In this document: positions 1 to 21,784 of the stretch, one piece after another | How the letters are laid out: each line of letters starts with the position of its first letter | How positions within the stretch are numbered: the stretch's first letter is position 1 | Virus record (IMG/VR): IMGVR_UViG_2541047936_000004 | Direction: 5' to 3' (one strand) | Length of the DNA: 21,784 nucleotides | Source: a virus | Lineage: Duplodnaviria; Heunggongvirae; Uroviricota; Caudoviricetes | The notes under the pieces: generated by a model | Seen by the model: the letters and a program-made list of their open reading frames with translations, nothing else | The model's database searches: none | What the model was told of the DNA's origin: nothing | Position numbers and translations under genes: made by a program

Positions 1-405
1 ATGGATCAGGTCGTTGTTTTTCAAAAGATGTTTGAGCAAGTGAGAAAAGAGCAAAACTTCTCCTGGTTTTATTCAGAATTAAAACATCACCGTATTGCAC
101 ATTACATTTATTATCTGGCTACGGATAACATCAGAATTATTACTCACGATGATACGGTTTTGTTATTAAGAGGAACCAGGAACCTGTTAAAAGTTAGTAC
201 GACCAAGAACCCTGCTAAAATAAAAGAGGCCGCATTGCTTCATATTTGCGGAAAATCTACATTTCGGGAATACTGTTCAACACTGGCAGGTGCGGGCGTT
301 TTCCGGTGGGTTACTGATGTTAATCATAACAAACGCAGTTACTACGCCATTGATAATACGCTTTTATATATTGAAGATGTAGAAAATAATAAACCATTAA
401 TCTAG
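1..405 (+). CDS. ycgX: Host-side small protein, 134 aa (YcgX-like, DUF1398-type)
   Basis: Complete 134-aa ORF starting at window base 1. Called from its position next to iraM and icdC, which matches the K-12 order icdC-iraM-ycgX, and from the recalled length; the sequence itself was not recalled. Confidence 0.5.
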   Translation: MDQVVVFQKMFEQVRKEQNFSWFYSELKHHRIAHYIYYLATDNIRIITHDDTVLLLRGTRNLLKVSTTKNPAKIKEAALLHICGKSTFREYCSTLAGAGVFRWVTDVNHNKRSYYAIDNTLLYIEDVENNKPLI

Positions 406-614
406 CTAAAGTTGGATACTTAAGAAATGCTTCATAATTCAGTAAGGCATTAGCATAATGGAAATAAAAGTGCAGAGACTATCTCTATGGATGATTAATA
501 CTGTCTTTTTATTGTCACCCATAAATAATCACCAGACTAATACTATCAACTTGATATTTGAAATGTGATCACTTGACTTTTGATACGTTATTTTATAACG
601 GTTAACATATTTAT

Positions 615-655
615 AAAAACAACGGCCGTGCCACACGTCCGTTTCAATACTTAAC
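615..655. repeat. Degenerate second copy of the icd-terminator hairpin element
   Basis: aaaaacaacggccgtgccacacgtccgtttcaatacttaac matches 1481-1520 (aaaacaacgggcgtgttatacgcccgtttcaatatttaac) at most positions, including the hairpin arms and the tttcaata-ttaac flank; the stem has one mismatch. Confidence 0.45.
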
Positions 656-1010
656 GCACATGTATTTTGGTTTAGTCATCATCCGGTTATATGTATTTTA
701 GCCAGGAACAGGTTAAATCATTCCTATATAACTCAAAAATTGAAACCTTATTCTCATGTCATGCTTATATTCATTATTATCGTTATATAAAAAGGCAACC
801 ATAATGTTTAGCAAATTGGCACAAAGTAGCATAAAGGCTATGTTTTAATTACAGGATGTTCAGTCATTTGAATGTATAACATTATAGCTAAACAAATCTA
901 AAACGAAGTCAATAATTTATTGCTTTCACAAAATCTCATTTTGTTTAACATCCATTGAGATTCCTTGCTTTAAATTTTATTTTATATAAGCCATCATTTT
1001 AATTAATTTA

Positions 1011-1028
1011 TTTTTTTGAGGGGGGGGG
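1011..1028 (+). repeat. Homopolymer tracts: T7 followed by G9, about 80 bp upstream of the iraM start
   Basis: Read directly: tttttttga then nine consecutive G at 1020-1028. Confidence 0.9.
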
Positions 1029-1105
1029 TAATATACTCATATGCAAAATCAAGAAATAAACATCCTAATGAACCATATTAAATACCGTGGGATAAGACAT
1101 AACAA

Positions 1106-1429
1106 ATGAAGTGGATAGTAATTGACACGGTAATTCAACCTACATGTGGTATATCTTTTTCAGCCATATGGGGTAATATGAAAATGATCATCTGGTATCA
1201 ATCTACTATATTTCTCCCTCCTGGCAGTATATTTACACCGGTTAAGTCTGGTATTATCCTTAAGGATAAAGAATATCCTATTACTATTTATCACATCGCA
1301 CCATTCAACAAGGATTTATGGAGTTTACTCAAAAGCAGTCAAGAGTGTCCTCCAGGAGAAAGCAAAATAACAAATAAATGTTTACATAATAGTTGCATTA
1401 TAAAAATATGCCCATATGGGCTCAAGTAA
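1106..1429 (+). CDS. iraM: Anti-adaptor protein IraM (stabilises RpoS by inhibiting RssB)
   Basis: 107-aa ORF whose sequence ([22 protein letters not shown]...) and length match my recollection of K-12 IraM; it sits next to the icdC scar as in K-12. Confidence 0.7.
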
Positions 1430-1485
1430 TGGGCTTCATATAAATATGCTCGATATGCTATTAATAATATCCACATAAATAAAAC

Positions 1486-1508: not shown

Positions 1509-1531
1509 TCAATATTTAACACATGGAGAGA

Positions 1532-1696: not shown

Positions 1697-2396
1697 TATA
1701 TAAAAACCATGAATTCAAGTCATTGATATTTAACGATAAAAATTATTTTATTGTCTTTTTATTAGCCAAAATAAACTTTATTCAACCGTTTGATTTCATT
1801 GACGTTCGTTTTTATTTTGGGGAAAGGTTTTCTCTACCATTTATATCCAAATTACAAGTCTACATTTTATTAACATCTCAATACATGTGAGGCCTTGCAG
1901 ACCTTTGTGAGACCTTATGTGTCTCTGTTTTGTCCCAACTTATGTTAAGAGGCACATAATTAAAAATAAGATAACGATGCCGCCAAGCAGTGCAAAACCT
2001 TGTTTACTCCACGACTGTCTGCCCCATTATCTGCATACATAATTATCCTCCATAACTGAGATAAATGTCGGTTATGAGCGAACAACAGACGTTTAGTTTA
2101 TGATGGCTGTGTCTATACATTAAACATAACATCCATTACCGGCACCGCTTATTAATTGCTATCTGATATTGTCACTAAAAAAATAGGCATTCCCCGATAT
2201 AATAATCACAAAGAAGCTTTTGGTGCTGGCAATCGGTATACCTCATAGTGGACTGCGACTTTCCGGGCACGACAAGGATATATCAATGTATGAGCAGGAA
2301 AATTAGACCGTGGTGCGTCATATGATGACTAAGCACGGATAACAGCTACTTAATTGAAACTATTGATTATATTACAGCCAGTGCCTTATAGGATGG

Positions 2397-3518
2397 TTAG
2401 TCATCAACCGCGACTCCTGCACAATCATGGGCTATTGCCAGCAATTGTTTTTTAATTGCTTTAGCATCTACCGTCATATCTACTGTAGCAAAATGGATCT
2501 TATGTCCCTGAGTGACAACATACTCATTAAGCATATAGCCAACAGCTGGATGAAGTAGAAGACCAGCGGCATTGAGCGAAAGCGGATCCGTCTTGTTCTC
2601 CTGTGTTCTAAGGTAGGTATATAGCTGATAAATATAGCCATTACGTAGTGATTGCTCCCGATGCCAACCCTTTGTCAGAATCGAATTAAATTTGGTATCG
2701 ATAATAATACGCCGCTGGGCAGTCTTGTGTTCCAGAATAATGTCTGACTTCATTGTCGGGAAAATCTCTGCACTACCTGCACTTTGATCGCTCAACGCCC
2801 ATTTCAGCTCTTTCCCTGCAGAGACCTGCCAAGTTGTTTTGGCAAGGTGTACACGATATAAGCCAGCGATACCTTTTTCAAATAGTCTTCTCATCCAGTA
2901 AAGGTTATTTGAGGGCGCAGGTAAAAGATATTGGCCTTGATCTTCGGTCGGCATCAGCAGTTCAAAAGCTAATCGTGCGGCATCGACCATCGGTTTATCT
3001 GCGGCATCATGGCGTCCAAAACGCCACACTGAGGGTAATTCGCGGGGGGCAGGATATCCTCCATTTATCCCCTCACGGCGAAGTGATATTGCCATAAAAT
3101 GGCAATCTGCCGCCAAAGACGGTTTCACTATGATTGAGGCCAGACGTTCTAACGCACAGCGAACATAGCGATTTCGGGGGGTGTTGAGGGTTATGTCTTG
3201 AAAATGGCAGGCAACCTGTCCCCGTTCCAGCAGTTGATGACTGGCAGTATACAGTATGTCAATGCGCCCTCTCACCCGGTTCAGGGCCGCATGACAAGTT
3301 TGGTATCCCATATTTAAATTGCGACGTCGGCGCAGCGTAATCTCATGAAGGAGGATTGTCGCCACCAGGTCGGGGATTTCTGCTGGGTTATCTTCTACTG
3401 CGATCTGATTGCGCCCTAACTGGCGAAACAGATCTGAAGCGTACAGCATCAGCATCCAGATATTTCGCATGGGAATACGTGATGCTGTATGTTGCTCACT
3501 CCCGGTTATTGTCGTCAT
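2397..3518 (-). CDS. mcrC: McrC-family nuclease subunit of a McrBC-type (Type IV) restriction system
   Basis: 373-aa ORF colinear with K-12 McrC: MRNIWMLMLYAS vs VRNIYYMLTYA near the N-terminus, RIIIDTKF vs ILIVDAKYY (PD-D/ExK-type core), YIYQLYTYL vs LYQLMNYL, GLLLHPAV vs GLLIYPHV. Its ATG overlaps the mcrB stop (ATGA). Confidence 0.85.
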   Translation of the reverse strand: MTTITGSEQHTASRIPMRNIWMLMLYASDLFRQLGRNQIAVEDNPAEIPDLVATILLHEITLRRRRNLNMGYQTCHAALNRVRGRIDILYTASHQLLERGQVACHFQDITLNTPRNRYVRCALERLASIIVKPSLAADCHFMAISLRREGINGGYPAPRELPSVWRFGRHDAADKPMVDAARLAFELLMPTEDQGQYLLPAPSNNLYWMRRLFEKGIAGLYRVHLAKTTWQVSAGKELKWALSDQSAGSAEIFPTMKSDIILEHKTAQRRIIIDTKFNSILTKGWHREQSLRNGYIYQLYTYLRTQENKTDPLSLNAAGLLLHPAVGYMLNEYVVTQGHKIHFATVDMTVDAKAIKKQLLAIAHDCAGVAVDD

Positions 3519-5497
3519 TTTGCTAATAACACTTTTCTGGCTTCATCGACTTTATTTGGAGCATCGAACCAATATTCGGCGAGCAAAGGGCAGATCTCTG
3601 TATCAACGACTTGTTCATACCAAGCCTGGGCATCGTTGATTTTTTGGCCGATAGCTGGGGTGACATAGCTGTGACCGATACAAAACTGTGGTCCTAAGGT
3701 AACATCTTTTGCCAGCATATCGTTTAATACCGTCAGTCGAGATTTGATGAATGCTAACATGTCAAAATCAATTGCGTAATTATAATTTACCCAGTTTCTC
3801 CACGCGTCATTAAAAGCTGGCTTTAGATCGATAAACGCGAAACGACGGCGCAGCGCTAGGTCAAGTAGTGCGAGTGAGCGGTCTGCAATATTCATCGTAC
3901 CGATGATATATAGATTCTCAGGAATGTATATTTTTTCATCAGCATTTTTAGGATAGGAAAGAGATAATGCCTCAGTCGGCGTGCGTTTATCTGCTTCCAT
4001 CAACGTGAGTGTTTCACCGAAGATTTGCGCCGGATTGCCACGATTAATCTCTTCAATTATCACCACATATTTCGAGGTAGGATTATTGACTGCAGTTTTG
4101 ATTGCATTTACAAAAGGTCCATCAATTAGCGTCAATTGCCCTTCTTTACCTGGACGCCAGCCTCGAATAAAGTCTTCGTAAGAGAGGTTCGGGTGAAATT
4201 GCACCGCGCTAATACGCTCAGGTGCTTTTTCTCCCATCAAGCAGTACGCCAGACGTCGCGCTAACCAAGTTTTTCCAGTTCCGGGTGGTCCTTGTAATAT
4301 CAGGTTTTTCTTGTCGATCAGGCGCTGAAGTGTGAGTTGGATCTTAGCCTCTTCCAAGAAACAGCCATCCTGCACCAGATGACTGATGTCATAAGGAACG
4401 TGGGTGAGTTTTGGCAACAGCGCACTCTCTTCGACAGTTTCCTCAGTTATCGTCTGGGATTCGTTTTTCTCAAAATTCAGGTATTCATAATTTCCGGACT
4501 CGAGGGACTTTAACTCATCATCATTGCATAGTTTCTGTAGATAAAAGTAGATTGAGCTTGTAACAGTTTTGCTCTCAGGATGCTCTACCTTGAATACGTC
4601 CAAGTAGTTTTCTTCCAACTCCGAAGCAGTGAAATAAGGGCCATTTTTTTTCAGGCATAACGCCTTAATTTTATTCAGTAAAGAGGCTTTCCACGTTCTA
4701 TTTGCCACCTCATCTTTAGACTGGCTAAGATCTGTATTCCACGCTGATAAGGAAAGTTCTGGGAAAGAATGAACCGGATAGTTTGGTTGGGTAAAGACCT
4801 CGTTCAGCGCCCGCATAAGACTCAGGTAACTTTGTCCACTACAGCGACCTTTTGCCCCGTTTTTAATGATCTTAATGTTTAACACTGTCTGAATGTAATA
4901 CTGCGACTGGCTATCTAAAGTGGGGTAGAACCAAGGACGGGTCCAGTACAACCCCATGGTGAGATTCCAACCGACATTCATTACTGTAGAAGCGATGTCA
5001 TATGCGGCAGTGAAGTCTGCAGAGTTAGTATTCTGGTTATCCGCAAAGATCATTGCCTGTGAGAACATTTCCCACAAGCATTCAATGTCATTAGGGTCGC
5101 GTGACTTTTCATAACCAAAGAACCAAGATTTTTGGTTATTCAACAGAGGGATTCCGGCAAAGGAGTCAGGAATCGGTTCGTTCACGCCCAACAAATTCGC
5201 TAGCTTGGCAGCAATAATTTTGCGATTGCTGTCGGTCAAGTTACGATTGAACAAGCCCATAGTAGTAAACGGACAAATGTCTTTTAAGGGAAAGATCTCT
5301 CCCATAATAGATTTGTCCTGCAGATGGGACATTCCTTCCACACCCGAGGCAATTAGATGAATACCTTTGACTAATTCATCTCTACGATTTCGCCAAGTCA
5401 GTAACGCGTTGGCAAAAGCCTCATAAAAACTAGCCCAAGCAAACTTGCCATCATGTTCTGCTGTATCCACGGGAACTCCATTATACTTGTTGAGCAA
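3515..5497 (-). CDS. mcrB: McrB-family GTPase (AAA+) with a long N-terminal region of unknown type
   Basis: 660-aa ORF with a TTG start. Residues ~390-660 align with K-12 McrB: NLILQGPPGTGKTWLARRLAY, VQFHPNLSYEDFIRGWRP, MNIADRSLALLDLALRRRFAFIDL, IGHSY, PLLAEYWFD. The first ~385 residues do not resemble the K-12 McrB N-terminal domain as I recall it. Confidence 0.85.
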   Translation of the reverse strand: MLNKYNGVPVDTAEHDGKFAWASFYEAFANALLTWRNRRDELVKGIHLIASGVEGMSHLQDKSIMGEIFPLKDICPFTTMGLFNRNLTDSNRKIIAAKLANLLGVNEPIPDSFAGIPLLNNQKSWFFGYEKSRDPNDIECLWEMFSQAMIFADNQNTNSADFTAAYDIASTVMNVGWNLTMGLYWTRPWFYPTLDSQSQYYIQTVLNIKIIKNGAKGRCSGQSYLSLMRALNEVFTQPNYPVHSFPELSLSAWNTDLSQSKDEVANRTWKASLLNKIKALCLKKNGPYFTASELEENYLDVFKVEHPESKTVTSSIYFYLQKLCNDDELKSLESGNYEYLNFEKNESQTITEETVEESALLPKLTHVPYDISHLVQDGCFLEEAKIQLTLQRLIDKKNLILQGPPGTGKTWLARRLAYCLMGEKAPERISAVQFHPNLSYEDFIRGWRPGKEGQLTLIDGPFVNAIKTAVNNPTSKYVVIIEEINRGNPAQIFGETLTLMEADKRTPTEALSLSYPKNADEKIYIPENLYIIGTMNIADRSLALLDLALRRRFAFIDLKPAFNDAWRNWVNYNYAIDFDMLAFIKSRLTVLNDMLAKDVTLGPQFCIGHSYVTPAIGQKINDAQAWYEQVVDTEICPLLAEYWFDAPNKVDEARKVLLAK

Positions 5498-5830
5498 TGA
5501 TAATTTATCTGTGTGAGTTTTAACATATTACTATCAGTTATAGAAAAATTTAACTATCCGATACAGAGAGCGGAATGCTGAATTTGACCTGACTTGCTTC
5601 CAACCAATTAAAATCAACTTATTTATCAATTGGTTATTTTGGCACATGGCGGTCATCAAGGCAATATCGCGTTGTCATAAGGTGTCGAGGCTCGGAGGTT
5701 CAAATCCTCTCATACAAAAAATAAATAAAATTAATGACGGTTGGAAATTATTCAATACACTCTCGAAAGTACATCAGCCAACCGCAGCACGTTATTGCAT
5801 ATAACGTTTCTGCGGCATATCACAAAACTA

Positions 5831-6415
5831 TTATTCCATAACAGGGATTGCAGGCCACTCAATATCAGGTGCAGTTGATGTATCAACACGATTCAGCAAC
5901 ACCCGATACTTCTTCCAGGCTTCAAGCAACGAGGTTTCTTCCTCCGTTGCGATTTCCAGATCTGCAGCATCCTGAAGCGGGGCAATATGCTCACTGGCTA
6001 CCTGCATCAGGCTGTTTTTTGTTTCTTCCGCCTCCCGGATCCGGAACAGTTTTTCTGCTTCCGTATCCTTCACCCAGGCTGTGCCGTTCCACTTCTGAAA
6101 CTCCCCTTCCGGGGATAACCAGGTGATATTTTCCGGTAGAGGTCCGAGTTCAGAAATAAATAACGAGTCGCCGGAAGCCACGTCATAGACGGTTTTTCCC
6201 CGATGATCTTCAACGAGATGCCACGATGCCTCATCACTGTTGAAAACAGCCACGAAGCCTACCGGAATATCTGGCGGTGCAATATAGGTACTGTTTGCTG
6301 GCAGACCTGTATGAGGCGGAATATATGCGTCACCTTCACCAATAAATTCATTAGTTCCGGCCAGCAGATTATAAATTTTTATGGTCCGTGGTTGTTCACT
6401 CATTCTGAATGCCAT
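5831..6415 (-). CDS. tfa: Tail fibre assembly protein (lambda Tfa-like)
   Basis: 194-aa ORF nearly identical to my recollection of lambda Tfa ([43 protein letters not shown]...[11 protein letters not shown]); start overlaps the stf stop. Confidence 0.9.
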
Positions 6416-9264: not shown

Positions 9265-9282
9265 TTCCCGGATCGCTATACG

Positions 9283-10114: not shown

Positions 10115-10332
10115 GCTGGAGTGGCGAACGTTTTACCCTTGCTGATGAGGTATTCACTGATTTCGCTGTACCACATGTGGCTGAGTGCATTCTGGGAAAG
10201 ACTGCGTCTCTCGCGCCACGGTTTAAGCACCATGCGAAAGCATTTGCCGTCCTCCAGATAAGGCTGGATCTGCCGACCGATAGCGGTGAAGTTACCGCGA
10301 TGCAATTTGATACCATCTTGTGGGAGGTTCAC
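10115..10332 (-). pseudogene. N-terminal fragment of a NinB/Orf-like recombination protein, truncated at the junction with the J remnant
   Basis: GTG start with a GGAGGT Shine-Dalgarno sequence. The motif WRERRSLSQNALSHMW resembles the lambda NinB block ERNRSLDQNRKLWACL at a similar distance from the N-terminus. The reading frame then runs into J-derived sequence; the exact junction is unresolved. Confidence 0.3.
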
Positions 10333-12094: not shown

Positions 12095-12523
12095 GTTCAC
12101 AGATAAAACACTCTCCAGGAAACCCGGGGCGGTTCACCATTCAGATCCGCGCTTATCTTTAGCTGATGAATTGGCTCTCTCAGCGCAAGCCTTTAAAGAC
12201 TCATAAAGGTAAACTCTATTTTGTAGCTGCAGCGCTTTTTTTGACGTGTACCAACTTGCAAGCGCCGACCCCGCTGCGGCTAATGTGCCAAACGCAGAAA
12301 TACCTGCTGCTATTGCACTTAAGTCGGCACTGTCAAAGTTCCACATCATCGTTACACCTTATATAAATACCCCTCAGTAATATCCAATAAGGTATGTGCA
12401 CAATCAATATAATTTTATCCGTATCGGCACATAGCGATTTGAACGCTACTGGTAATGGTATATTTTAGATTATATCGTCCAGTTTACAGCACCCGTATTT
12501 TATGAAATGGACTCGCATATTAC

Positions 12524-12563
12524 CCAAAAAATGCCAGCACTTCCGTCATCGTAGAATGCTGGC
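12524..12563 (-). terminator. Probable rho-independent terminator downstream of the 99-aa ORF and recombinase
   Basis: Hairpin gccagcac(ttc)...(gaa)tgctggc at 12533-12563 (7-bp perfect stem, extendable to ~10 bp with one bulge), followed on the minus strand by a T6 run (plus-strand aaaaaa at 12525-12530). Confidence 0.45.
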
Positions 12564-12607
12564 AGTATTTCTAACTAGTGACTTTATTGGAACAGATTCT
12601 GACGGAA

Positions 12608-12907
12608 TTATGGTAACACTCGACTCCACTTATCATCCAGCCACGGCTGGAATTTTACATGTGCCGTTTCTCTGGCGAGGATTGCTCGCGCTCTGTTGAG
12701 TATCTGGGGATATTCTTGCTCGATAGAAGTAAAGCGGCCGGCTTCGCGGTGCTCCGCAACCTGAAGTAGTGGAGTAACGTTCTGGCAGGCAGTTAACATC
12801 ACATCACCTGCTCGCCATAACCAAGCACGTGCACAAAGTTTGTTATCAGTGAATTGTTTTGTGATTGGGTATTGTTGAACTGCTAGAACGAGAACGCCAG
12901 CATCCAT
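12608..12907 (-). CDS. Hypothetical 99-aa protein
   Basis: ORF between the recombinase gene and the IS-split gene, with a plausible AGGGA ribosome-binding site; no family recognised. Confidence 0.35.
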   Translation of the reverse strand: MDAGVLVLAVQQYPITKQFTDNKLCARAWLWRAGDVMLTACQNVTPLLQVAEHREAGRFTSIEQEYPQILNRARAILARETAHVKFQPWLDDKWSRVLP

Positions 12908-13018
12908 TGGCAGTCCCTATAGTAAAACCATAGCTCAGGACGCTTCGTTCAGGATAGATAATTTTATTGTACTTACCTAACTTTCTTACTATAGCACGGT
13001 TGAAAAAGTGATTATTAC

Positions 13019-14545: not shown

Positions 14546-14800
14546 GGTGACACCTGCTAAAGTATGCTTTTATAAACCTTAGTGGTGAGATATGATTTTT
14601 GTTTAATTTTTATTTAAAAAGACAATTAAGGTCACATTATCTTGAATATACAACAATAATCGTATTGCAATTTTCTTACACCATAATCTTGAAAGCACAA
14701 AAGAATGAATAAAAACTAAAGACATTAACAAAAAGCATAAAACGAGGCCCATATAAATATACGAGCCTCCATATTTTAGTCGTTTAAAAACAAATTATTT

Positions 14801-15133
14801 TTAATGTGGTGTGCTTCGTGACAATAAATTAATAACCAACACACCGGCACAAATCAACATCATGCCTATAATGGCTGGCAGGTCCAACCGTTGGCCGAAA
14901 AATCCCCATGATAGTAAGCTAATCAGGACAATACCGACTCCTGACCAGATAGCATAAGCAATCCCTGTAGGAATATAAGCCAGCGTCTGAGCTAATAACC
15001 AGAATGATGCACAATAACAAATAATTGTACCAACAGATGGCCATAACCGTGTAAAACCTTCTGAAAACTTCATTAAGGTTGTACCAATGACCTCTGCAAG
15101 TATTGCACCACCAAGATAAATATAAGGATTCAT
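14801..15133 (-). CDS. emrE: Small multidrug resistance efflux transporter EmrE
   Basis: 110-aa protein MNPYIYLGGAILAEVIGTTLMKFSEGF...LSRSTPH matches EmrE as I recall it. The track ORF extends 18 codons further upstream; I trimmed to the canonical ATG, which has an AGGA upstream. Confidence 0.9.
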   Translation of the reverse strand: MNPYIYLGGAILAEVIGTTLMKFSEGFTRLWPSVGTIICYCASFWLLAQTLAYIPTGIAYAIWSGVGIVLISLLSWGFFGQRLDLPAIIGMMLICAGVLVINLLSRSTPH

Positions 15134-15200
15134 AGCATATTCTTTCCTGTTCAAACTGGAGAGAATTGTACTACAGTTTGAACTCAACTCACCTGTTTCA

Positions 15201-15503
15201 TCATTGTGTACCCATTGATGTTCTTTTATATACCCTCAATACCCGTTTCATCGCGGCACTCTGGCGACACTCCTTAAAAATCAAATTCGTGCTCACCTTT
15301 CCTTCCCATTCTTCTCTGGTAGCGAACCGATAATACACCGTTCGCCAGACCTTACCATCAACGACTAGGATTCCTGCCCGCGCCATTTTAGCCGCAGCCT
15401 GATTTATGCTGGTTACCGTTGCGCCTGTTACCGCGGCAACGTCCTGCGCACAGAATTTCTTATGAGTCCCCAGGTAATGAATAATTGACTCTTTGCCCGT
15501 CAT
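15201..15503 (-). CDS. ren: Lambda Ren-like protein
   Basis: MTGKESIIHYLGTHKKFCAQDVAAVTGATVTSINQAAAKMARAGILVVDGKVWRTVYYRFATREE matches lambda Ren closely; overlaps the P stop. Confidence 0.85.
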   Translation of the reverse strand: MTGKESIIHYLGTHKKFCAQDVAAVTGATVTSINQAAAKMARAGILVVDGKVWRTVYYRFATREEWEGKVSTNLIFKECRQSAAMKRVLRVYKRTSMGTQ

Positions 15504-16201
15504 ACCCTTGCTCCTTTCAGCCCAAACTTAGCTTTGATTTCTGCGATCTTCGCCAGAGCCTGTGCACGATTTAGAGGTCTACCGCCCATGACAGGAAGTT
15601 GTTTTACTGGTTCAGGTATAGCCTCACCACGGTTAATTCGTGCGGTCATACAGGACAGTTCATCGGCAGCCTTGCGCCGTAATTCCGCGTCAGTCAACGC
15701 ATTGGCCCGCATGTTCTGATACAGGTTGGTAACCAGCCAGTAGTGCGCGTTTGATTTCCACGGATAAGACTCTGCATCCGGATACAGCCCGCGCTTCCGG
15801 CAATACTCGTAAACCATATCAACCAGCTCGCTGGCGTTTGGCAGCCCGGCGGTAACGGATGCTTCTTCCCGGCACCAGGCGACAAACTGCCCGGGTGATG
15901 GCAGGAATGGTCGATTCTGCCGACGGGCTACGCGCATTCCAGCGTTAACCTGTTCCATTGTGGTGATCCCGTTTTCCCGAAAAGCCAGCACCCACTGGCG
16001 GCGGATTTCGTTCAGTTCATTCTGGTCACGGTTAGCCAGGCTCGCCGGGAAAGTTGCCAGTAACTGGCTGAACACACCGTTGATGATCTGCGCTACCTGC
16101 TGTACCTGTGGCTTTTCGTCGTACTGTTCCGGCATGTTGTTGGCGATCCGACGCATCTGCTCACGGTCAAAGTTAACCATCTGTGCGGCGATGTTTTTCA
16201 T
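15500..16201 (-). CDS. P: Replication protein P (lambda P-like, DnaB loader)
   Basis: 233-aa ORF essentially colinear with lambda P (MKNIAAQMVNFDREQMRRIANNMPEQYDEK...AKFGLKGA), with the same length. Confidence 0.9.
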   Translation of the reverse strand: MKNIAAQMVNFDREQMRRIANNMPEQYDEKPQVQQVAQIINGVFSQLLATFPASLANRDQNELNEIRRQWVLAFRENGITTMEQVNAGMRVARRQNRPFLPSPGQFVAWCREEASVTAGLPNASELVDMVYEYCRKRGLYPDAESYPWKSNAHYWLVTNLYQNMRANALTDAELRRKAADELSCMTARINRGEAIPEPVKQLPVMGGRPLNRAQALAKIAEIKAKFGLKGARV

Positions 16202-16440
16202 AGATCCACCCCGTAAATCCAGTCAGTGTTTGTCAGGTCGAGTTTTGGTTTGCCGACTGTCACGCCAGCCTGTTGCTTGTTCCGGTTGATTTCGAGCTGG
16301 GTCCACTTGTCGCGGAGTTTGGCCGGACTCAGCACGTTACCGGACCAGAAGTTGTCCTGGCAGGCCCAGCGGAACAGTACACACATGTCGCGGTGGTTAC
16401 GTCCATCACGTTCACGCATCAGACGGATATCGTTACCGGG
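16198..16440 (-). pseudogene. O: Replication protein O, C-terminal fragment only
   Basis: The minus-strand ORF ends ...[56 protein letters not shown], which is the lambda O C-terminus. The N-terminal origin-binding part is absent; the upstream boundary is the exo junction. Confidence 0.8.
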
Positions 16441-17088
16441 ATCGACGTGAGAGCTGTCGAACAGGGGGATGATGCGTGGCACAAATTACGGCTCGGCGTC
16501 ATCACCGCTTCAGAAGTTCACAACGTGATAGCAAAGCCCCGCTCAGGAAAGAAGTGGCCTGACATGAAAATGTCCTACTTCCACACCCTGCTTGCCGAGG
16601 TTTGCACCGGTGTGGCTCCGGAAGTTAACGCTAAAGCACTGGCCTGGGGAAAACAGTACGAGAACGACGCCAGAACCCTGTTTGAGTTCACTTCCGGCGT
16701 AAATGTTATTGAATCCCCGATCATCTATCGCGACGAAAGTATGCGCACCGCCTGCTCTCCCGATGGTTTATGCAGTGACGGCAATGGCCTTGAACTGAAA
16801 TGCCCGTTTACCTCCCGGGATTTCATGAAGTTCCGGCTCGGTGGTTTCGAGGCCATAAAGTCGGCTTACATGGCCCAGGTGCAGTACAGCATGTGGGTGA
16901 CGCGAAAAGATGCCTGGTACTTTGCCAACTATGACCCGCGTATGAAGCGTGAAGGCCTGCATTATGTCGTGGTTGAGCGGGATGAAAAGTACATGGCGAA
17001 TTTTGACGAGATGGTGCCGGAGTTCATCGAAAAAATGGACGAGGCACTGGCTGAAATTGGTTTTGTATTTGGGGAGCAATGGCGATGA
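16430..17088 (+). pseudogene. exo: Lambda exonuclease (Exo/RedA), lacking its start and first ~10 codons
   Basis: [56 protein letters not shown]...[14 protein letters not shown] is colinear with lambda Exo from about residue 10 to the end. The apparent N-terminal 55 codons of the track ORF are antisense O sequence. Confidence 0.85.
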
Positions 17089-17243
17089 CGCATCCTCACG
17101 ATAATATCCGGGTAGGCGCGATCACTTTCGTCTACTCCATTACAAAGCGAGGCTGGGTATTTCCCGGCCTTTCTGTTATCAGAAATCCACTGAAAGCACA
17201 GCGGCTGGCTGAGAAGATAAATAACAAACAGGAGGATATATGA
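17085..17243 (+). CDS. Possible 52-codon small ORF translationally coupled between exo and the DGQHR gene
   Basis: Its ATG overlaps the exo stop (ATGA), its TGA overlaps the DGQHR ATG (ATGA), there are no internal stops, and GGGGAG lies 8 nt upstream. Product [52 protein letters not shown]. Below the track's length threshold. Confidence 0.3.
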
Positions 17244-18304
17244 GTCAGGTTGGTAATCATTCATTCGAATTTCCGGCATCGCAAGGTGTACAGGGTGGTA
17301 CTGTTACACTCTTCCTTACCATACCAGGAAGATCGCTGGCTCGTTTCCTCGCTTCAGATAATTACGGCCATACACTGGAACGCTCTCAGCGAGAAATTAA
17401 TCCAAATCGAGTACGAAAATTTTTAAATTATCTCACTAACGCAGACTCAAGAAATGAGCCTTTTATCATTCCCCCTCTCGTAGGTAACTGTGATTCGAAT
17501 ATAGAATTTGTACCGTTTGGCAACACAAATGTTGGTATAGCCAGAATTCCCCTCGACGCCGAAATAAAACTTTTTGATGGTCAACATCGTGCAGCTGGCA
17601 TTGAGATATTTTGCCGAAGTTCCCCATCAACGCTCATGGTTCCCATGATGCTTACAATGAATCTGCCGCTAAAAACCCGGCAGCAGTTCTTTTCGGACAT
17701 AAATAACAACGTTTCTAAGCCATCAGCGACCATCAATATGGCGTATAACGGCCGGGATGATATTGCTCAGGGAATGATATCCTTCCTGACCCAACATACT
17801 GTATTTGCCGATATAACCGATTTTGAACACAACGTAGTGCCATTAAAAAGTAATATGTGGGTGAGTTTCAAGGCACTCACTGATGCAACGTCAAAGTTCG
17901 CTAGGAACGGCAATCAACAACTTGAAATGGGATATATAGAATCTGTCTGGGAGGCATGGATTACACTAACTCAGATTGACTCAATCCGACATGGTGTACA
18001 CCACGCTACGTACAAGCGCGATTATATTCAGTTCCATGGAGTAATGATTAACGCTTTCGGTTTTGCGGTTCAACAGATGATGGTTAATCATTCCATCGCA
18101 GAAATAACTTCTATGATCGAAAAACTATGTGCAACTACCAGCTCTGCAGAAAGAGAGGATTTTTTTCTGATGGATAACTGGGCGGGGATCTGCACGAAAG
18201 CCAGCCAGGAAAAACTATCTGTTATTGCCAATGTGGCAGCGCAGAAAGCAGCAGCAAACAGACTGATACAAGCTTTTACCAAAGGAAGTCTGGAAACAAC
18301 TTAA
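17240..18304 (+). CDS. DGQHR-domain protein (DndB-like), solitary
   Basis: 354-aa ORF with a strong ribosome-binding site (CAGGAGGA-N5-ATG). It contains the exact motif FDGQHRAAGIE at residues ~112-122 and a downstream QQFFSDINNN block, consistent with the DGQHR/DndB family as I recall it. No dndACDE-like genes are nearby. Confidence 0.7.
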   Translation: MSQVGNHSFEFPASQGVQGGTVTLFLTIPGRSLARFLASDNYGHTLERSQREINPNRVRKFLNYLTNADSRNEPFIIPPLVGNCDSNIEFVPFGNTNVGIARIPLDAEIKLFDGQHRAAGIEIFCRSSPSTLMVPMMLTMNLPLKTRQQFFSDINNNVSKPSATINMAYNGRDDIAQGMISFLTQHTVFADITDFEHNVVPLKSNMWVSFKALTDATSKFARNGNQQLEMGYIESVWEAWITLTQIDSIRHGVHHATYKRDYIQFHGVMINAFGFAVQQMMVNHSIAEITSMIEKLCATTSSAEREDFFLMDNWAGICTKASQEKLSVIANVAAQKAAANRLIQAFTKGSLETT

Positions 18305-18457
18305 TGAATCAACATTGTCTCATATCAGCATGCTGTACGGCGTCTTTAAGGAACGGTGAGCATGAAAAACAAAATCATCATGGAGCTACAGGCTCCTTTT
18401 TTATTATTCGCATTCACCCTCAAGCGTATTAACCAACAATTCAGGGATTAATGAAAG

Positions 18458-18676
18458 ATGGCAGACATCATTGATTCAGCATCAGAAATTGAAGAATTAC
18501 AGCGCAACACAGCAATAAAAATGCGCCGCCTGAACCACCAGGCTATATCTGCCACTCATTGTTGTGAGTGTGGCGATCCGATAGATGAACGAAGACGCCT
18601 GGCCGTTCAGGGTTGTCGGACTTGTGCAAGTTGCCAGGAGGAGATCGAACTTAAGAACAAACAATGGGGACTGTGA
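18458..18676 (+). CDS. TraR/DksA-family C4 zinc-finger protein
   Basis: 72-aa ORF with CxxC-N17-CxxC (CCECGDPIDERRRLAVQGCRTCASC), typical of phage and plasmid TraR-like proteins. Confidence 0.65.
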   Translation: MADIIDSASEIEELQRNTAIKMRRLNHQAISATHCCECGDPIDERRRLAVQGCRTCASCQEEIELKNKQWGL

Positions 18677-18723
18677 TGGCTTCAAAGCAGCAAATTTCAA
18701 CATCGTCCAACTGAGGTGTAAAA

Positions 18724-18963
18724 ATGTTCAGAATCATTTTTCCTAACACCTGGTACGTCGACCACCACGGCACTCCCTGCAAAATCCTGCGTTCTACCCA
18801 CAACAAAGTTCACTACATCCGAAAAGGCAGAACATGTATCGCCAGCATGTTCCGCTTTAATCATGACTTTGAACCTGTGAATAAAGCTGATGCAGATCGG
18901 ATAGCAGAAGAGATCGAAACGGCAGAACACATTAAGAAGTTACGTGCCATACGCAGGAAATAG
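18724..18963 (+). CDS. Hypothetical 79-aa protein
   Basis: ORF in the same orientation as the early-left operon, ending 52 bp before IS629 copy 2; no family recognised. Confidence 0.35.
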   Translation: MFRIIFPNTWYVDHHGTPCKILRSTHNKVHYIRKGRTCIASMFRFNHDFEPVNKADADRIAEEIETAEHIKKLRAIRRK

Positions 18964-19057
18964 AAAAATTGATAAATTCAATACTGCATTACTCAGCATT
19001 AAATTTATCTCTATGTGAACCGCCCCGGGTTTCCTGGAGAGTGTTTTATCTGTGAAC

Positions 19058-19948
19058 TCAGGCTGCCAGATCATCGTTTCCGATGGAAGCATAATAAGCT
19101 TTTTCTGCTTCTGCCGGAGGAGTATGGCCCAGCCTTTCCAGCAATCGTCGATTGTTATACCAGTCCACCCACGTGAGTGTGGCCAGTTCCACTTCTGCAC
19201 GGTTTTTCCAGCTCTTACGGTGTATTACCTCCGCTTTGTAAAGACCATTGATGCTCTCCGCCATCGCGTTGTCATACGAGTCGCCTGTACTTCCTGTTGA
19301 TGCCAGTAATCCGGCTTCCTTAAGCCGCTGTGTGTAGGCCAGCGATACATACTGAGAACCTTTATCACTGTGATGGACCGTGCCGGACGGTCGACGGGCC
19401 CATAACGCCTGCTCCAGTGCATCCAGCACGAATGTCGTTTCCATGGACGATGAGACCCGCCACCCCACGATGTATCCGGCAAACACATCAATGATGAACG
19501 CCACATAGACGAAGCCCCGCCATGTGCTGACGTAAGTAAAATCAGCCACCCACAGCTGGTCAGGTCGTTCTGCCACGAACTGACGGTTTACGCGGTCGCC
19601 TGCGGCAACGGCTTTCCGGCTGATGGTCGTACGGACCTTTTTACCCCGGAGAACACCGGCAAGTCCCATAACCGCCATGAGGCGCGCCACTGTACATCTG
19701 GCCACCCTGATTCCTTCCCGTAACAACTGACGCCAGACTTTACGCACACCGTACACCTGATGATTTTCATCGTATACGCGCTGTATCTCTCTCTTCAGCC
19801 AGTCATCGTGCTGCGCACGGGCACTGCGTTTATCCGGATGATGTCGCTGTTGCTGACAATGGTAATACGTTGACGGGGCAATATGCAGTTCGCTGCATAC
19901 CGGTCCGACCCCGTACTGCTCACGCAGCTTATCCAGCAGTGGCATCAT
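19058..19948 (-). CDS. IS629 OrfB transposase (copy 2)
   Basis: Protein identical to 11204-12094. Confidence 0.85.
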
Positions 19949-20271
19949 TTTTTCCAGAGGCGGTCGAACTCCGCCTTCGCAAAATAAGCGGAAGCCTGGC
20001 GAAGGATATCGTTACTGCGGCGCAGTTCACGATTTTCACGTTCCAGCTCTTTCAGACGCTGACGTTCAGCGCTGGTGAGCCCACCATCACCGCCCCCGGT
20101 ATCCCGCTCATGCTGGCGAACCCAGACACGCAGAGTCTCCGGCGTACAGCCAATCTTTGGGGCAATGGAACAAATTGCCGCCCACTGTGAGTCATATTCA
20201 TCCTGACTTTCCAGAACCATACGGACTGCCCGTTGACGGACTTCGGGGGAAAAACGAGTATTTTTAGTCAT
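19945..20271 (-). CDS. IS629 OrfA (copy 2)
   Basis: Protein identical to 10881-11207. Confidence 0.85.
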
Positions 20272-20415
20272 CCTGTTTACCTCTTTCTCAGGAAGTTTAG
20301 TCTCCAGGATTCCCGGGGCGGTTCACTGACCAGTCAAGAGATGTACCTGCCATGAGCTTAATATCATGTCAGATATATCGGTCACAAACTCCCTCAGCAG
20401 CTAAGAGGAGGACAA

Positions 20416-20652
20416 ATGTCTCGACTAATCACTTTACAGGACTGGGCTAAAGAAGAATTTGGGGACTTAGCACCAAGTGAGCGAGTTCTGAAAAAATACG
20501 CGCAAGGGAAAATGATGGCCCCACCCGCTATAAAAGTTGGTCGCTACTGGATGATTGACCGAAATTCCCGTTTTGTAGGAACGCTTGCAGAACCGCAACT
20601 CCCAATAAACGCAAACCCAAAACTCCAACGGATAATCGCTGATGGCTGCTAG
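20416..20652 (+). CDS. xis: Excisionase (Xis-like)
   Basis: 78-aa ORF immediately upstream of and overlapping int, with a strong ribosome-binding site (AAGAGGAGGA); the LITLQDW...PPAIKVGRYW pattern resembles the lambda Xis family (LTLQEW...PPPVKDGREY). Confidence 0.7.
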   Translation: MSRLITLQDWAKEEFGDLAPSERVLKKYAQGKMMAPPAIKVGRYWMIDRNSRFVGTLAEPQLPINANPKLQRIIADGC

Positions 20653-21784
20653 ACCCCGATCTCACAAAATCTCTATACCCAATTTATATTGCAAATTAGA
20701 TAAGCGAACCGGAAAGGTATATTGGCAATACAAACATCCACTATCCGGTCGTTTTCATAGCTTAGGAACTGATGAGAATGAAGCAAAACAAGTTGCTACT
20801 GAAGCAAATACCATTATTGCTGAACAACGTGCCAGACAAATATTAAGCGTCAATGAGCGTCTGGAAAGAATGAAAGGCAGGCGCTCAGACATTACGGTGA
20901 CAGAATGGCTTGATAAATATATTTCTATCCAGGAGGACAGGCTGCAACATAATGAACTAAGACCCAACTCCTATCGGCAAAAAGGCAAACCCATTCGTCT
21001 TTTCCGTGAGCATTGTGGAATGCAACACCTCAAGGATATTACCGCACTTGATATTGCCGAAATAATTGATGCTGTAAAGGCTGAAGGTCATAACAGGATG
21101 GCGCAAGTCGTGAGAATGGTGTTGATCGACGTCTTCAAAGAAGCACAACACGCAGGACATGTTCCGCCAGGATTTAACCCTGCGCAGGCAACAAAACAAC
21201 CGCGAAATCGAGTAAACCGCCAAAGATTGTCACTGCTCGAATGGCAGGCAATATTTGAAAGCGTAAGCAGACGGCAGCCCTATTTAAAATGCGGCATGCT
21301 ACTTGCTCTTGTTACTGGACAACGTTTAGGCGATATCTGCAATTTGAAATTCTCTGATATATGGGACGACATGTTGCACATTACTCAGGAAAAAACCGGT
21401 TCAAAACTTGCTATTCCGCTTAACCTGAAATGCGATGCTCTGAATATTACCCTTCGTGAAGTTATATCTCAGTGCAGGGATGCTGTTGTTAGTAAATATC
21501 TGGTCCATTACCGTCACACTACCTCTCAAGCAAACAGAGGAGACCAGGTTTCTGCAAATACTCTGACAACGGCTTTTAAAAAGGCCCGGGAAAAATGTGG
21601 CATAAAATGGGAGCAAGGAACTGCGCCCACATTTCATGAGCAGCGATCTCTCTCAGAACGGTTATATCGGGAACAGGGTCTGGATACGCAAAAGTTGTTA
21701 GGCCATAAATCCAGAAAAATGACCGACCGATACAATGATGATCGTGGTAAAGACTGGATTATCGTAGATATCAAAACAGCATAG
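20642..21784 (+). CDS. int: Tyrosine integrase, lambda Int family
   Basis: 380-aa ORF colinear with lambda Int: RPRSH..PNLY near the N-terminus, LALVTGQRLGDICNLKFSDI vs LAVVTGQRVGDLCEMKWSDI, PTFHEQRSLSERLY vs PTFHELRSLSARLY, LLGHKS...RYNDDRG vs LLGHKS...QYRDDRG (catalytic Tyr context). The stop is the last codon of the window. Confidence 0.9.
   Translation: MAARPRSHKISIPNLYCKLDKRTGKVYWQYKHPLSGRFHSLGTDENEAKQVATEANTIIAEQRARQILSVNERLERMKGRRSDITVTEWLDKYISIQEDRLQHNELRPNSYRQKGKPIRLFREHCGMQHLKDITALDIAEIIDAVKAEGHNRMAQVVRMVLIDVFKEAQHAGHVPPGFNPAQATKQPRNRVNRQRLSLLEWQAIFESVSRRQPYLKCGMLLALVTGQRLGDICNLKFSDIWDDMLHITQEKTGSKLAIPLNLKCDALNITLREVISQCRDAVVSKYLVHYRHTTSQANRGDQVSANTLTTAFKKAREKCGIKWEQGTAPTFHEQRSLSERLYREQGLDTQKLLGHKSRKMTDRYNDDRGKDWIIVDIKTA

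Follow-up and report, generated by a model that had tools for sequence, protein, structure and literature searches.

A defective lambdoid prophage of phage 21/Perceval type at icd in Escherichia coli

What kind of element occupies the icd locus in this 21,784-nucleotide stretch of DNA (the window, meaning the whole stretch analysed)? A preliminary description had read it as a mosaic of an e14-like location and DLP12-like early genes, and every feature that it listed is present in the window. We conclude, with a probability of about 90%, that the sequence from position 1699 to the right edge represents a lambdoid prophage, now grounded (defective), of phage 21/Perceval-type descent at icd. It is an ordinary, heavily deleted lambda-like remnant in E. 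coli icd.

The left end of the window is chromosomal. Positions 1-1429 (+) lie outside the prophage and carry ycgX (1-405), ymgL, ymgK, and iraM (1106-1429), with a GC content of 31-35%; the same genes are annotated in K-12 and NCTC9100. Two of them, ycgX and iraM, match phage families (phrog_413 and phrog_4407). Adjoining iraM and ycgX is icdC (1530-1697, -), the displaced original 3' end of icd, annotated by PGAP as a partial isocitrate dehydrogenase; with the 3' end of the functional NCTC9100 icd it shares 92.6% identity. The flank from ycgX to icdC (1-1698) shares 99.8% identity with the K-12 flank abutting e14 (K-12 1211.4-1213.1 kb). The prophage boundary, or attR crossover, lies at about 1698/1699, and identity to K-12 ends at 1698, the exact end of e14 in that strain. 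The earlier placement of a cryptic prophage at icd is confirmed. In the closest genomes (NCTC9100 and Z1323HEC0011), an intact icd lies 113 bp past the int stop at the right edge. Only the attR side falls within the window; attL is outside it.

The icd attB is also used by phage 21, and both ends of the element resemble that phage. Positions 1699-1950 make up an attR arm of phage 21 type, where the phage b region ends, inside a 472-bp match (1479-1950) that also spans icdC and is 90.5% identical to phage 21 (27079-27550) and 92.6% identical to Perceval (27505-27976). The arm holds one exact arm-type dodecamer, CTTTCCCCAAAA (1815-1826, -), which fits the consensus YYTTCCCCAAAA annotated for phage 21 attP. 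At the right end are an intact phage-21-type excisionase gene, xis (20416-20652, +), and an intact gene for a 380-amino-acid tyrosine integrase, int (20642-21784, +). At the amino acid level Int is 99.5% and Xis 100% identical to the phage 21 proteins, compared with 60% and 36% for IntE and XisE of e14, and the xis-int region is 99.5% identical in nucleotides to OL657228.1 (27611-29068). The integration module is that of phage 21, not that of e14.

With Int and Xis undamaged and all but identical to their counterparts in a working phage, and with the attR arm and its arm-type site retained, the element might still be a mobile, excisable island moved by these two proteins; e14 itself excises after SOS induction. 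We regard this as unlikely, as the deletions took pL, N, cII, and the immunity region, an insertion sequence upstream of xis cuts xis and int off from upstream transcription, and the occurrence of the element at different states of decay in about 300 genomes points to long vertical residence.

The early region of the grounded prophage follows the gene order of the same phage group. Inward from xis lie genes for a DUF4222 protein (18724-18963, +; 98.7% amino acid identity to Perceval) and a TraR/DksA zinc-finger protein (18458-18676, +; 100%), the pair matching phrog_54 and phrog_285, then DUF1317 (17085-17243, +; 4e-31) and exo (16435-17088, +). The exo gene lacks its own start, and residues 3-219 of its product are 98.6% identical to Perceval Exo. 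Of O, only the last 79 codons survive (16198-16434, -): over residues 16-94, the ORF shares 96% identity with the O C terminus of Perceval and phage 21 and aligns to positions 237-317 of 318 in phrog_277. The origin of replication is deleted, the phage 21 ori falling in the missing part of O. P (15500-16201, -) is full length, 97.9% identical over all 233 residues to P of phage 21 and Perceval. The preliminary description had called both exo and P remnants, which fails for P and holds for exo only to the extent of about nine missing codons.

Beyond P lie ren (15201-15503, -; 100 amino acids, Ren-like phrog_142, 95% amino acid identity to Perceval RenD) and emrE (14801-15133, -), encoding a 110-amino-acid SMR efflux pump (Multi_Drug_Res, 3e-35) with 99.1% identity to K-12 EmrE and 100% to that of Perceval. 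Beside emrE is the annotated ylcJ (14603-14752, -), followed by intact ybcK (13019-14545, -), which encodes a 508-amino-acid large serine recombinase with Resolvase, Recombinase, and Zn_ribbon_recom domains, 97.2% identical to K-12 YbcK and 98.4% to Perceval YbcK. Next come a small, 99-amino-acid P22AR_C-domain protein (12608-12907, -; Pfam P22_AR_C, 9e-13; phrog_7640 over its full length) and a 169-amino-acid phage gene of phrog_1779 (10528-12349, -; profile match 1e-102), split by an insertion sequence into a 5' part (12137-12349) and a 3' part (10528-10826). The phrog_1779 gene is intact in NCTC9100 (L001, 22528-23037), and a Pfam search of its product gave no match. The region ends in a 75-codon 5' remnant of ninB/ybcN with a ylcH-like upstream region (10078-10515, -), matching NinB/Orf (phrog_72, 1.7e-21) over residues 1-75 only and 92.6% identical in nucleotides to DLP12 ylcH/ybcN.

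In the tail-gene region, an intact 194-amino-acid tail fibre assembly protein, Tfa (5831-6415, -; Caudo_TAP, 7e-44), is 93.8% identical to DLP12 TfaD over residues 50-194; an Rfam IS009 match (5874-6072, 214 bits) lies within tfa. The side tail fibre ORF, stf (6415-9264, -; 949 codons), retains a Collar domain and lacks about 150 N-terminal residues, the tail-attachment domain: residues 10-629 align to positions 149-769 of phrog_3299, a domain scan of the ORF found no phage_tail_N domain, and similarity to ev099 stf ends 474 bp short of the ev099 stf start. The earlier account of a lambda-like Stf/Tfa end agrees with these domains. Its "repeat region" in stf is indeed a long Stf ORF, but the DNA is not notably repetitive, with a single weak 21-bp array of 2.4 copies. 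Adjoining stf is a remnant of J, the central tail fibre (9146-10114, -), with Phage_Tail_Tip and Ig_GpJ_C domains, which matches Perceval 18177-18681 and 16974-17313 and ev099 6443-6963 and 7895-7990. The tail-fibre block of the window is closer to other lambdoid phages (ev099 and mEp332, about 93%) than to Perceval or phage 21, which counts against the proposed descent.

These remnants meet at four junctions, all mapped to the base. At junction A (16434/16435), the 3' end of O is fused to exo minus its first 26 bp; about 5.9 kb is gone, comprising bet, gam, kil, the immunity region, cII, and the 5' part of O with ori (window 12738-16435 corresponds to Perceval 41053-37361, and 16434-17242 to 31438-30630). 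Junction B (10108-10111) joins the 5' part of ninB/ybcN to the middle of J, with about 24 kb gone, including the nin region, Q, lysis, cos, head, and most tail genes (window 10108-10515 corresponds to Perceval 42842-42435, and 9772-10111 to 17313-16974). At junction C (9253-9255), the truncated 3' end of J is fused to the truncated 5' end of stf; about 1.4 kb is lost here, J being short of its final 245 bp, lom missing altogether, and stf short of 474 bp (window 9253 is position 6443 of the ev099 locus and 9255 is 5029, with a 3-bp overlap). Junction D (9772/9773) is a deletion of about 0.9 kb internal to J. Across junction D, however, the order in which the halves of the remnant match Perceval and ev099 is inverted, an arrangement that a plain internal deletion does not explain and that counts against the proposed descent.

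Could tandem integration or a chromosomal rearrangement have placed two independent remnants, a phage-21-type int end and a DLP12-type fragment, next to each other? Several junctions are abrupt, and GC along the window is patchy, from 36% to 58%. We nevertheless consider this origin highly improbable. There is a single int and a single pair of ends, every junction except at the J remnant is a simple deletion relative to phage order, and the order int21-xis-DUF4222-TraR-exo-O-P-ren-emrE-ybcK-ninB occurs in single packaged phages (Perceval, 4A7, 1W, 3W, and D2). Perceval carries int21, xis, DUF4222, TraR, and exo, then O, P, renD, emrE, and ybcK, in one isolated genome. Five blocks of the window (20327-21784, 18324-19015, 16434-17242, 12738-16435, and 10108-10515) match it at 91-99% nucleotide identity in phage order; a sixth, the J remnant (9253-10111), matches Perceval J as two inverted pieces either side of a J-internal gap and is non-collinear. 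An apparently complete prophage (L012) likewise has P, ren, emrE, ylcJ, ybcK, P22AR_C, the phrog_1779 gene, and ninB together with terminase and portal. One known lambdoid phage type thus accounts for the layout of the window, and the combination is a standard one among modules of the lambdoid pool; the idea of an unusual mosaic is not supported.

The mosaic had been framed as an e14 variant that gained DLP12 genes by recombination. It shares the attB and flank of e14 and has a modification-dependent restriction gene at the same end (McrA in e14, McrBC-like here), yet this reading is scarcely tenable: the flank (1-1698) and attB are all that e14 shares with the window, and beyond the divergence of IntE and XisE, no nucleotide similarity to the e14 interior was found at E < 1e-6, and the window has no homologue of PinE, McrA, Lit, CohE, or StfP. 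The absence of Pin noted earlier was supported by tblastn with K-12 PinE, which gave no match; among ten ORFs scanned for domains, the sole Resolvase-domain protein is YbcK. The DLP12 half of the description fared better, since the P, ren, emrE, ylcJ, and ybcK block is 94-98% identical in nucleotides to DLP12. In the isolated phage Perceval, the same block stands in the same order beside a phage-21 int at 96-99% identity. DLP12 is another remnant with this module, and the DLP12-like content here is the ordinary P-ren-emrE-ylcJ-ybcK module of the phage group, not a second element.

Two 1,310-bp IS629/IS1203-group copies interrupt the grounded prophage, copy 1 at 10827-12136 (+) and copy 2 at 19016-20325 (-), 90 bp upstream of xis. 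They are 100% identical and inverted, and both have TGAACCGCCCCGGG ends, orfA/orfB, and an IS3-type ALIL frameshift pseudoknot (11162-11278 and 19874-19990). Copy 1 has a perfect CCA target duplication, its empty site is present in NCTC9100, and its insertion was absent from all 5,426 complete E. coli genomes searched; copy 2 is flanked by ATG and CTG, an imperfect 3-bp duplication, and its insertion also occurs in E. coli Z1323HEC0011. Copy 2 inserted before copy 1, in a separate event. That the identical copies bracket a cargo-rich 9.5-kb composite transposon (10827-20325) which brought emrE, ybcK, and the DGQHR gene into an older prophage can be dismissed, as the identical segment, free of both copies, stands at this position in NCTC9100 and at least 12 other genomes, Z1323HEC0011 has copy 2 only, and copy 1 has its own duplication, the outer flanks (CCA and CTG) differing. 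The O157- or Shigella-type background proposed from these copies was not upheld. Many chromosomes and plasmids of commensal, animal, and clinical E. coli carry copies 100% identical to them, whereas an IS1203-labelled copy on an O157:H7 plasmid reaches only 97.5%; the flank is K-12-like, and the nearest genomes are small non-O157 E. coli. For Shigella the rejection is less firm, the collection searched being one of E. coli genomes without Shigella.

Relative to a Perceval-type phage, the window shows three cargo swaps: a McrBC-like pair for sitABCD, a DGQHR/DndB-like gene in the slot held by orf63/orf61 in Perceval and phage 21, and two small genes for a hydrolase. The McrC homologue (2397-3470, -; 357 amino acids, intact) scores 356 bits against the NCBIfam McrC equivalog (cutoff 338) and 5e-21 against Pfam McrBC. 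The intact, 651-amino-acid McrB-like GTPase (3515-5470, -) has about 370 N-terminal residues unlike EcoKMcrB, with no match in local Pfam, followed by a McrB AAA+ GTPase domain (residues 378-652 against EcoKMcrB structure 6hz4, E of 6e-76); its NCBIfam McrB score of 262 is under the cutoff of 637. Where the identical protein occurs in other assemblies, it carries the newer Pfam identifiers DUF8425 and McrB_lid. This 3.7-kb module occurs in 308 of the 5,426 genomes and in no isolated phage, and it may have been gained after lysogeny. The orphan DGQHR/DndB-like protein (17240-18304, +; 354 amino acids, intact) matches TIGR03187 DGQHR (189 bits) and phrog_7901 (7e-216), and scores 107 against the DndB equivalog cutoff of 328. 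It is 62-65% identical to proteins of Salmonella SPN1S-group and Klebsiella temperate phages, its homologues in annotated phage records likewise adjoin DUF1317, and its gene is found in 284 of the 5,426 genomes.

These cargo genes are more AT-rich than the stf region, as had been seen by eye: GC is 43.4% for the McrB-like gene, 47.3% for mcrC, and 42.9% for the DGQHR gene, against 53.2% for the Stf ORF and 56-58% across 8000-10000, and 10-point differences over more than 1 kb are well outside sampling noise. The separate acquisition proposed on that basis is borne out directly by position, both sets of genes sitting exactly where Perceval and phage 21 have others; the McrBC-like and DGQHR genes fill variable cargo slots of related phages. 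The genes ybcK (36.5%), emrE (40.5%), and int (43.3%), overlooked in that comparison, are equally or more AT-rich than the cargo.

An IS-free form of the element, at 98.6-100% identity and at least 80% coverage, is present in 17 of the 5,426 complete E. coli genomes, including NCTC9100, and less decayed (E94) and more decayed (WCHEC035148) versions have the same two ends. Without the IS copies, the window aligns end to end with this one element, which goes half way to refuting the preliminary reading by its own standard; we found no paper describing the element. Deposited phages each cover at most 40% of the prophage, and the exact progenitor is not among them.

The history of the locus may be reconstructed as follows. 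A phage-21 integrase would have inserted the phage into the 3' end of icd, at the attB also used by e14. The phage-borne copy would have replaced the end of icd, leaving the original as icdC; such replacement is established for phage 21 and e14, and the sequence here agrees with it. Four deletions followed, A (exo start to O 3' end), B (ninB to mid-J), C (from the 3' end of J through lom into the 5' end of stf), and D (inside J), after which the two IS629/IS1203-group copies inserted independently, copy 2 earlier and copy 1 later.

A promoter scan gave a result no better than chance. Without ori, most of O, repressor, N, Q, and the lysis, head, and tail genes, the prophage cannot replicate, lyse, or package, and virus production by it is no longer possible. 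What is left would be a chromosomal island with intact ORFs for a predicted McrBC-like pair, a DGQHR/DndB-like protein, EmrE, YbcK, Ren, P, TraR/DksA, Tfa, Int, and Xis, in which the McrBC-like pair at the attR end is predicted to provide modification-dependent restriction.

The element lies at icd, where phage 21 and e14 use the same attB. The left 1.7 kb of the window is chromosomal flank, comprising ycgX, ymgL, ymgK, iraM, and icdC (a 168-bp fragment of the icd 3' end, 1530-1697), and is 99.8% identical to K-12. Identity with K-12 ends at 1698, the base at which the e14 feature ends in K-12, and prophage DNA runs from 1699 to the right edge, which is the stop codon of the integrase gene. 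Insertion at icd is indicated by the displaced icdC at one end, the phage-type arm DNA inside it, and the 1698/9 boundary, placed as in K-12 e14. A 472-bp stretch (1479-1950), which takes in the first 252 bp of the prophage (1699-1950), matches phage 21 and Perceval at 90-93% identity in the DNA that adjoins their icd-like segment, and one exact arm-type dodecamer, as annotated in phage 21 attP, is present at 1815-1826. attL, expected as a phage-borne icd 3' end joined to chromosomal icd beside int, lies outside the window, past the right edge. In the near-identical elements of the E. coli genomes NCTC9100 and Z1323HEC0011, a 113-bp gap separates int from the end of icd. Since these closest complete genomes have an intact icd 113 bp past the integrase gene, the element occupies the icd attachment site.

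The chromosomal flank has features of its own. Between bluR and icdC (1-1429), its GC content is 31-35%, and ycgX (DUF1398, a family that also includes DLP12 ybcV) and iraM match the phage protein families phrog_413 and phrog_4407. This stretch looks like older phage-derived DNA adjoining the att site.

The integration genes are those of phage 21. Int is 99.5% identical over 380 of 380 amino acids and Xis 100% over 78 of 78, and at the DNA level int-xis matches positions 27611-29068 of phage 21 (OL657228.1) at 99.5% identity. Also shared with this phage are P (97.9% amino acid identity), Exo (98.2%), the C terminus of O (96%), attB in icd, the icd 3' duplicate, the arm-type dodecamers, and the order int, xis, DUF4222, TraR. 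However, phage 21 is complete and viable, is without emrE, ybcK, and the DGQHR gene, and has another tail fiber and no insertion sequence (IS). The best overall match is Perceval (OV696612.1, Bievrevirus), which matches 40% of the prophage at 96.6% nucleotide identity, in blocks that are collinear with the window and 91-99% identical. This single genome holds int21, xis, DUF4222, TraR, exo, bet, gam, cI, O, P, renD, emrE, and ybcK, although Perceval is a complete phage with an stf and tfa unlike those of the window. Its relatives, the isolated lambdoid phages 4A7, 1W, 3W, D2, and Lambda_4C10, likewise match the window in order. The surviving blocks keep the lambda gene order of Perceval and phage 21, apart from two pieces of J in inverted order, and four mapped deletions account for the parts missing from that order. 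The P22AR_C and phrog_1779 genes found here after ybcK also occur in an apparently complete prophage of another assembly (L012). Because Perceval, its relatives, and this prophage show the combination, it is a normal arrangement of lambdoid modules. A preliminary description had read the combination as a mosaic, but it is not unusual, as the same arrangement exists in Perceval and other isolated lambdoid phages. The element belongs to a well-known kind, the phage-21-type lambdoid prophage at icd.

Three slots that hold other genes interrupt the homology with Perceval and phage 21. At 1951-5693, the window has a McrB-like/McrC pair where both phages carry sitABCD, and at 17243-18323, it has a DGQHR/DndB-like gene where both carry orf63/orf61. 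The third slot, 10516-12737, holds a small P22AR_C protein and a phrog_1779 gene; there, Perceval has an alpha/beta hydrolase gene and DLP12 has ybcL/ybcM. These slots are direct evidence for the separate acquisition of mcrBC and the DGQHR gene, which had been proposed from their base composition. The GC profile did show AT-rich cargo (McrBC-like genes, 43-47%; DGQHR gene, 42.9%) compared with stf (53%, and 56-58% over 8-10 kb), but int, ybcK, and emrE are as AT-rich as the cargo genes.

In two related icd elements, a frameshifted remnant of a small recombinase, possibly Pin-like, adjoins the McrB-like gene (L007, 23870-24316; L008, 15151-15598). In the window, tfa abuts the point on the McrB-like side where those two loci hold the remnant, and the shared homology stops at window position 5813.

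The resemblance to DLP12 is genuine but ordinary. Five segments align with K-12 DLP12 at 89.7-97.7% nucleotide identity: ybcK, ylcJ, emrE, and part of ren (12980-15414, 95.8%); ren and part of P (15413-15811, 93.7%); an exo fragment (16809-17114, 97.7%); ylcH/ybcN (10108-10515, 92.6%); and tfaD, matching the 3' part of tfa (89.7%). The DLP12-type early-right module (P, ren, emrE, ylcJ, ybcK) is present at 94-98% nucleotide identity, with EmrE 99% and YbcK 97% identical in amino acids. DLP12, however, sits at argU with IntD, whereas the window element is at icd; the window has no match to IntD, and a tRNA scan of it found no tRNA gene. In addition, ren of DLP12 is split by IS3, and the nin, Q, and lysis region, lost from the window, is still present in DLP12. 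The exo/P (exoD/peaD) joint of DLP12 (L003, 4377/4378, equivalent to window 15811 joined to 16809) arose by another, larger deletion, within which the window's own joint (16434/5) falls. Being larger and different, it argues that DLP12 and the window decayed separately there, a course that sequence alone does not separate from descent of DLP12 through a window-like intermediate. Like the element studied here, DLP12 is a decayed prophage that carries this lambdoid module.

The resemblance to e14 is limited to the insertion site and its surroundings. According to a citing text (PMC12803456) and the phage 21 GenBank annotation, attB in icd is common to phage 21 and e14. The element and e14 share this site, the chromosomal flank, and a modification-dependent restriction gene adjoining icdC, but no prophage DNA. 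With blastn at E below 1e-6, no e14 interior sequence was detected in the window, the chromosomal flank alone matching, and tblastn against the window gave no match for PinE, McrA, Lit, CohE, or StfP; e14 has its own pin invertase, mcrA, lit, and cohE, none of them in the window. The Int/Xis lineage is another one as well (IntE 60% and XisE 36% identical, versus 99.5% and 100% for phage 21 Int and Xis). Based on these searches and identities, we rejected membership in e14.

The window contains two identical 1310-bp insertion sequences in inverted orientation. Copy 1 (10827-12136, plus strand) splits the phrog_1779 gene and is flanked by a CCA duplication, and copy 2 (19016-20325, minus strand) lies 90 bp upstream of xis, flanked by ATG and CTG. 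Their length, IS629-type TGAACCGCCCCGGG ends, orfA/orfB ORFs of 108 and 296 amino acids, and ALIL pseudoknot (121 bits), with the CCA duplication of copy 1, place them in the IS629/IS1203 group of the IS3 family. An O157:H7 plasmid has a copy, labelled IS1203 by PGAP, that shares 97.5% identity with them. The assignment is made at the level of the group, with IS629, IS1203, and IS3411 as candidate names. The empty site of copy 1 is present in NCTC9100; a search of 5,426 complete E. coli genomes did not find the copy 1 junction, which was likewise missing from a one-genome-per-species collection. An 83-amino-acid internal piece of the split gene, used as a query, matched common relatives only. 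Copy 2 is common to the window and Z1323HEC0011. Since copy 1 has its own duplication and an empty site and copy 2 is shared with Z1323HEC0011, the two arrived independently, copy 2 first. No inversion between the inverted copies was seen, the window being collinear with NCTC9100. A composite transposon, or other IS-mediated delivery of the DNA between the copies, is ruled out by the IS-free relatives and the target duplications.

The target duplication of copy 2 is imperfect, with ATG at 19013-19015 and CTG at 20326-20328; the empty site in NCTC9100 reads CTATG-ACCAG across the insertion point. Z1323HEC0011 has the same flanks, so the oddity was inherited.

The insertion sequences had also been taken as a sign of an O157-type or Shigella-type background. 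Among the E. coli chromosomes and plasmids searched, copies 100% identical to the window IS occur in many that are non-O157, while the O157:H7 plasmid copy is 97.5% identical; the genomes closest to the window are E. coli genomes of small size and commensal type. On these matches, the IS lends no support to an O157 background. The preliminary description is partly right and partly wrong. All the features it listed are present, and it holds for the site, the DLP12-type module, the Stf/Tfa tail fiber, the absence of Pin (no PinE match in the window by tblastn), and the AT-rich cargo. It fails for e14, for the mosaic reading of a combination that is not unusual, and for O157. Its e14-like location stands as far as the site at icd; by blastn and tblastn, nothing else in the element appears e14-like. 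In the alignment with K-12, likewise, the e14 locus matched in its chromosomal flank alone and DLP12 in its five segments. The reading of the element as an e14/DLP12 hybrid, attractive but wrong, is corrected here in favor of a phage-21-type lambdoid prophage.

We mapped the decay of this prophage to four junctions. At junction A (16434/5), the final 237 bp of O run into an exo gene that is missing 26 bp at its 5' end, and about 5.9 kb containing bet, gam, kil, the immunity region, cII, and most of O with ori has been lost. At junction B (10108-10111), the first 75 codons of ninB/ybcN are joined to the middle of J, and about 24 kb has been lost, comprising the nin genes, Q, cos, and the lysis, head, and tail genes. 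Junction C (9253-9255) fuses the truncated 3' end of J to stf: J is short of its final 245 bp, lom is gone, and stf has lost the 474 bp at its 5' end that encode its N-terminal domain. Junction D (9772/3) lies within J and removed about 0.9 kb. Intact ORFs remain for P (233 amino acids), Ren, EmrE, YlcJ, YbcK, DUF1317, DGQHR, TraR, DUF4222, Xis, Int, Tfa, McrC, and the McrB-like protein.

Three smaller observations concern the tail genes. The halves of the J remnant (9253-10111, minus strand) match Perceval (18177-18681 and 16974-17313) and the lambdoid phage ev099 in inverted order across 9772/3. A small rearrangement inside J is possible, as a plain internal deletion would not yield inverted order. 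In the identical element of other genomes, a 245-amino-acid hypothetical protein was automatically annotated opposite stf (window 8457-9194, plus strand), and stf was started there at 635 amino acids. The stf frame of the window is a single 949-codon ORF through 8457-9194. Homology to phage stf genes extends over 8207-9255, which makes the annotation on the opposite strand a probable artifact. Finally, the 3' half of tfa contains a full-length match to Rfam IS009 (5874-6072, minus strand; 214 bits versus a gathering score of 117), and the Rfam scan of the window returned solely this match and two IS frameshift pseudoknots.

The IS-free element is present in 17 of 5,426 complete genomes at 98.6-100% identity. 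A less decayed form, in E. coli E94, has cI, O, P, nin, Q, porin, and lysis genes and nohD and is without head or tail genes, and a more decayed form, in WCHEC035148, has IS1 and IS100 insertions. Both keep the same two ends. Our literature search found no paper on this particular element. For the most part, it is a routine example of lambdoid prophage grounding with useful cargo kept. It nevertheless provides a base-resolved decay series at one att site, from phage 21/Perceval through E94 and NCTC9100 to the window, Z1323HEC0011, and WCHEC035148.

We analyzed the McrBC-like pair by domain and structure prediction. The McrB-like ORF (3515-5470, minus strand) and mcrC abut on the same strand with an overlap at 3515-3518. 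McrC scores above the NCBIfam equivalog cutoff (NF007277, 356 bits versus 338), and the McrB-like protein has a GTPase domain clearly homologous to that of EcoKMcrB, residues 378-652 matching the AAA+ GTPase structure 6hz4 at an E of 6e-76. The pair differs from EcoKMcrBC at the N terminus of McrB, where a region of about 370 amino acids replaces the 5mC-reading domain. The EcoKMcrB-type 5mC-binding domain was not detected with NF008457 (262 bits versus a cutoff of 637, profile positions 176-452 alone matched), and the N-terminal 371 amino acids have no match in the local Pfam. The identical protein in other assemblies is assigned the newer Pfam families DUF8425 and McrB_lid, and homologues also PF17726. 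These homologues number more than 283, from varied isolate and metagenome sources, the closest (68%) being in Enterobacter; the protein itself occurs in no isolated phage. As modelled by AlphaFold (pLDDT 86.8), the N-terminal region consists mainly of helices, and helix and strand are mixed in a short segment around 279-330. A fold search with this model against the PDB gave no match at an E of 0.001 or better; below significance, there was a weak, winged-helix-sized similarity to DpnI chains (best E of 0.035, TM-scores of 0.17-0.28, 73-103 columns). When the mcrBC region was scanned for promoters and terminators, the site count was no higher than in shuffled sequence. PADLOC matched the McrB-like protein to generic AAA models only and DGQHR to DndB, with no model match for McrC or YbcK.

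The DGQHR protein (17240-18304) belongs to phrog_7901 and shares 62-65% identity with proteins from Salmonella SPN1S-group and Klebsiella temperate phages, in whose annotated records the gene likewise adjoins a DUF1317 gene. Its DGQHR domain scores 189 bits, and the DndB equivalog scores 107 versus a cutoff of 328. With no other dnd gene in the annotation or in the ORFs covered by the scan, a Dnd phosphorothioation system (DndB with dndACDE) was not found.

The McrBC-like module is found in 308 of the 5,426 complete genomes at at least 99% identity, always on the chromosome, and the DGQHR gene in 284 at the same threshold, with 1 of 286 matches on a plasmid. The two lie at opposite ends of the prophage, and both survive in the differently decayed E94 and WCHEC035148 forms. 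Our tentative interpretation, to which we give somewhat less than even odds, is that the McrB-like/McrC pair near attR is a predicted active modification-dependent restriction system whose specificity would be set by another, uncharacterized reader, DUF8425 and possibly a DpnI_C-like winged helix. Selection for the pair, perhaps together with the DndB-like orphan at the opposite end, would then keep both ends, and icd prophages would have converged on type IV restriction at the same slot. Follow-up value is limited to the McrB homologue with its uncharacterized N terminus and the orphan DGQHR gene, each found in about 5% of the complete E. coli genomes. If the interpretation is true, selection would account for the retention of both ends of this icd prophage in about 300 E. 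coli genomes, the middle decaying in various ways, and unrelated lineages, e14 with McrA and the window element with McrBC-like genes, would have converged at the same slot.
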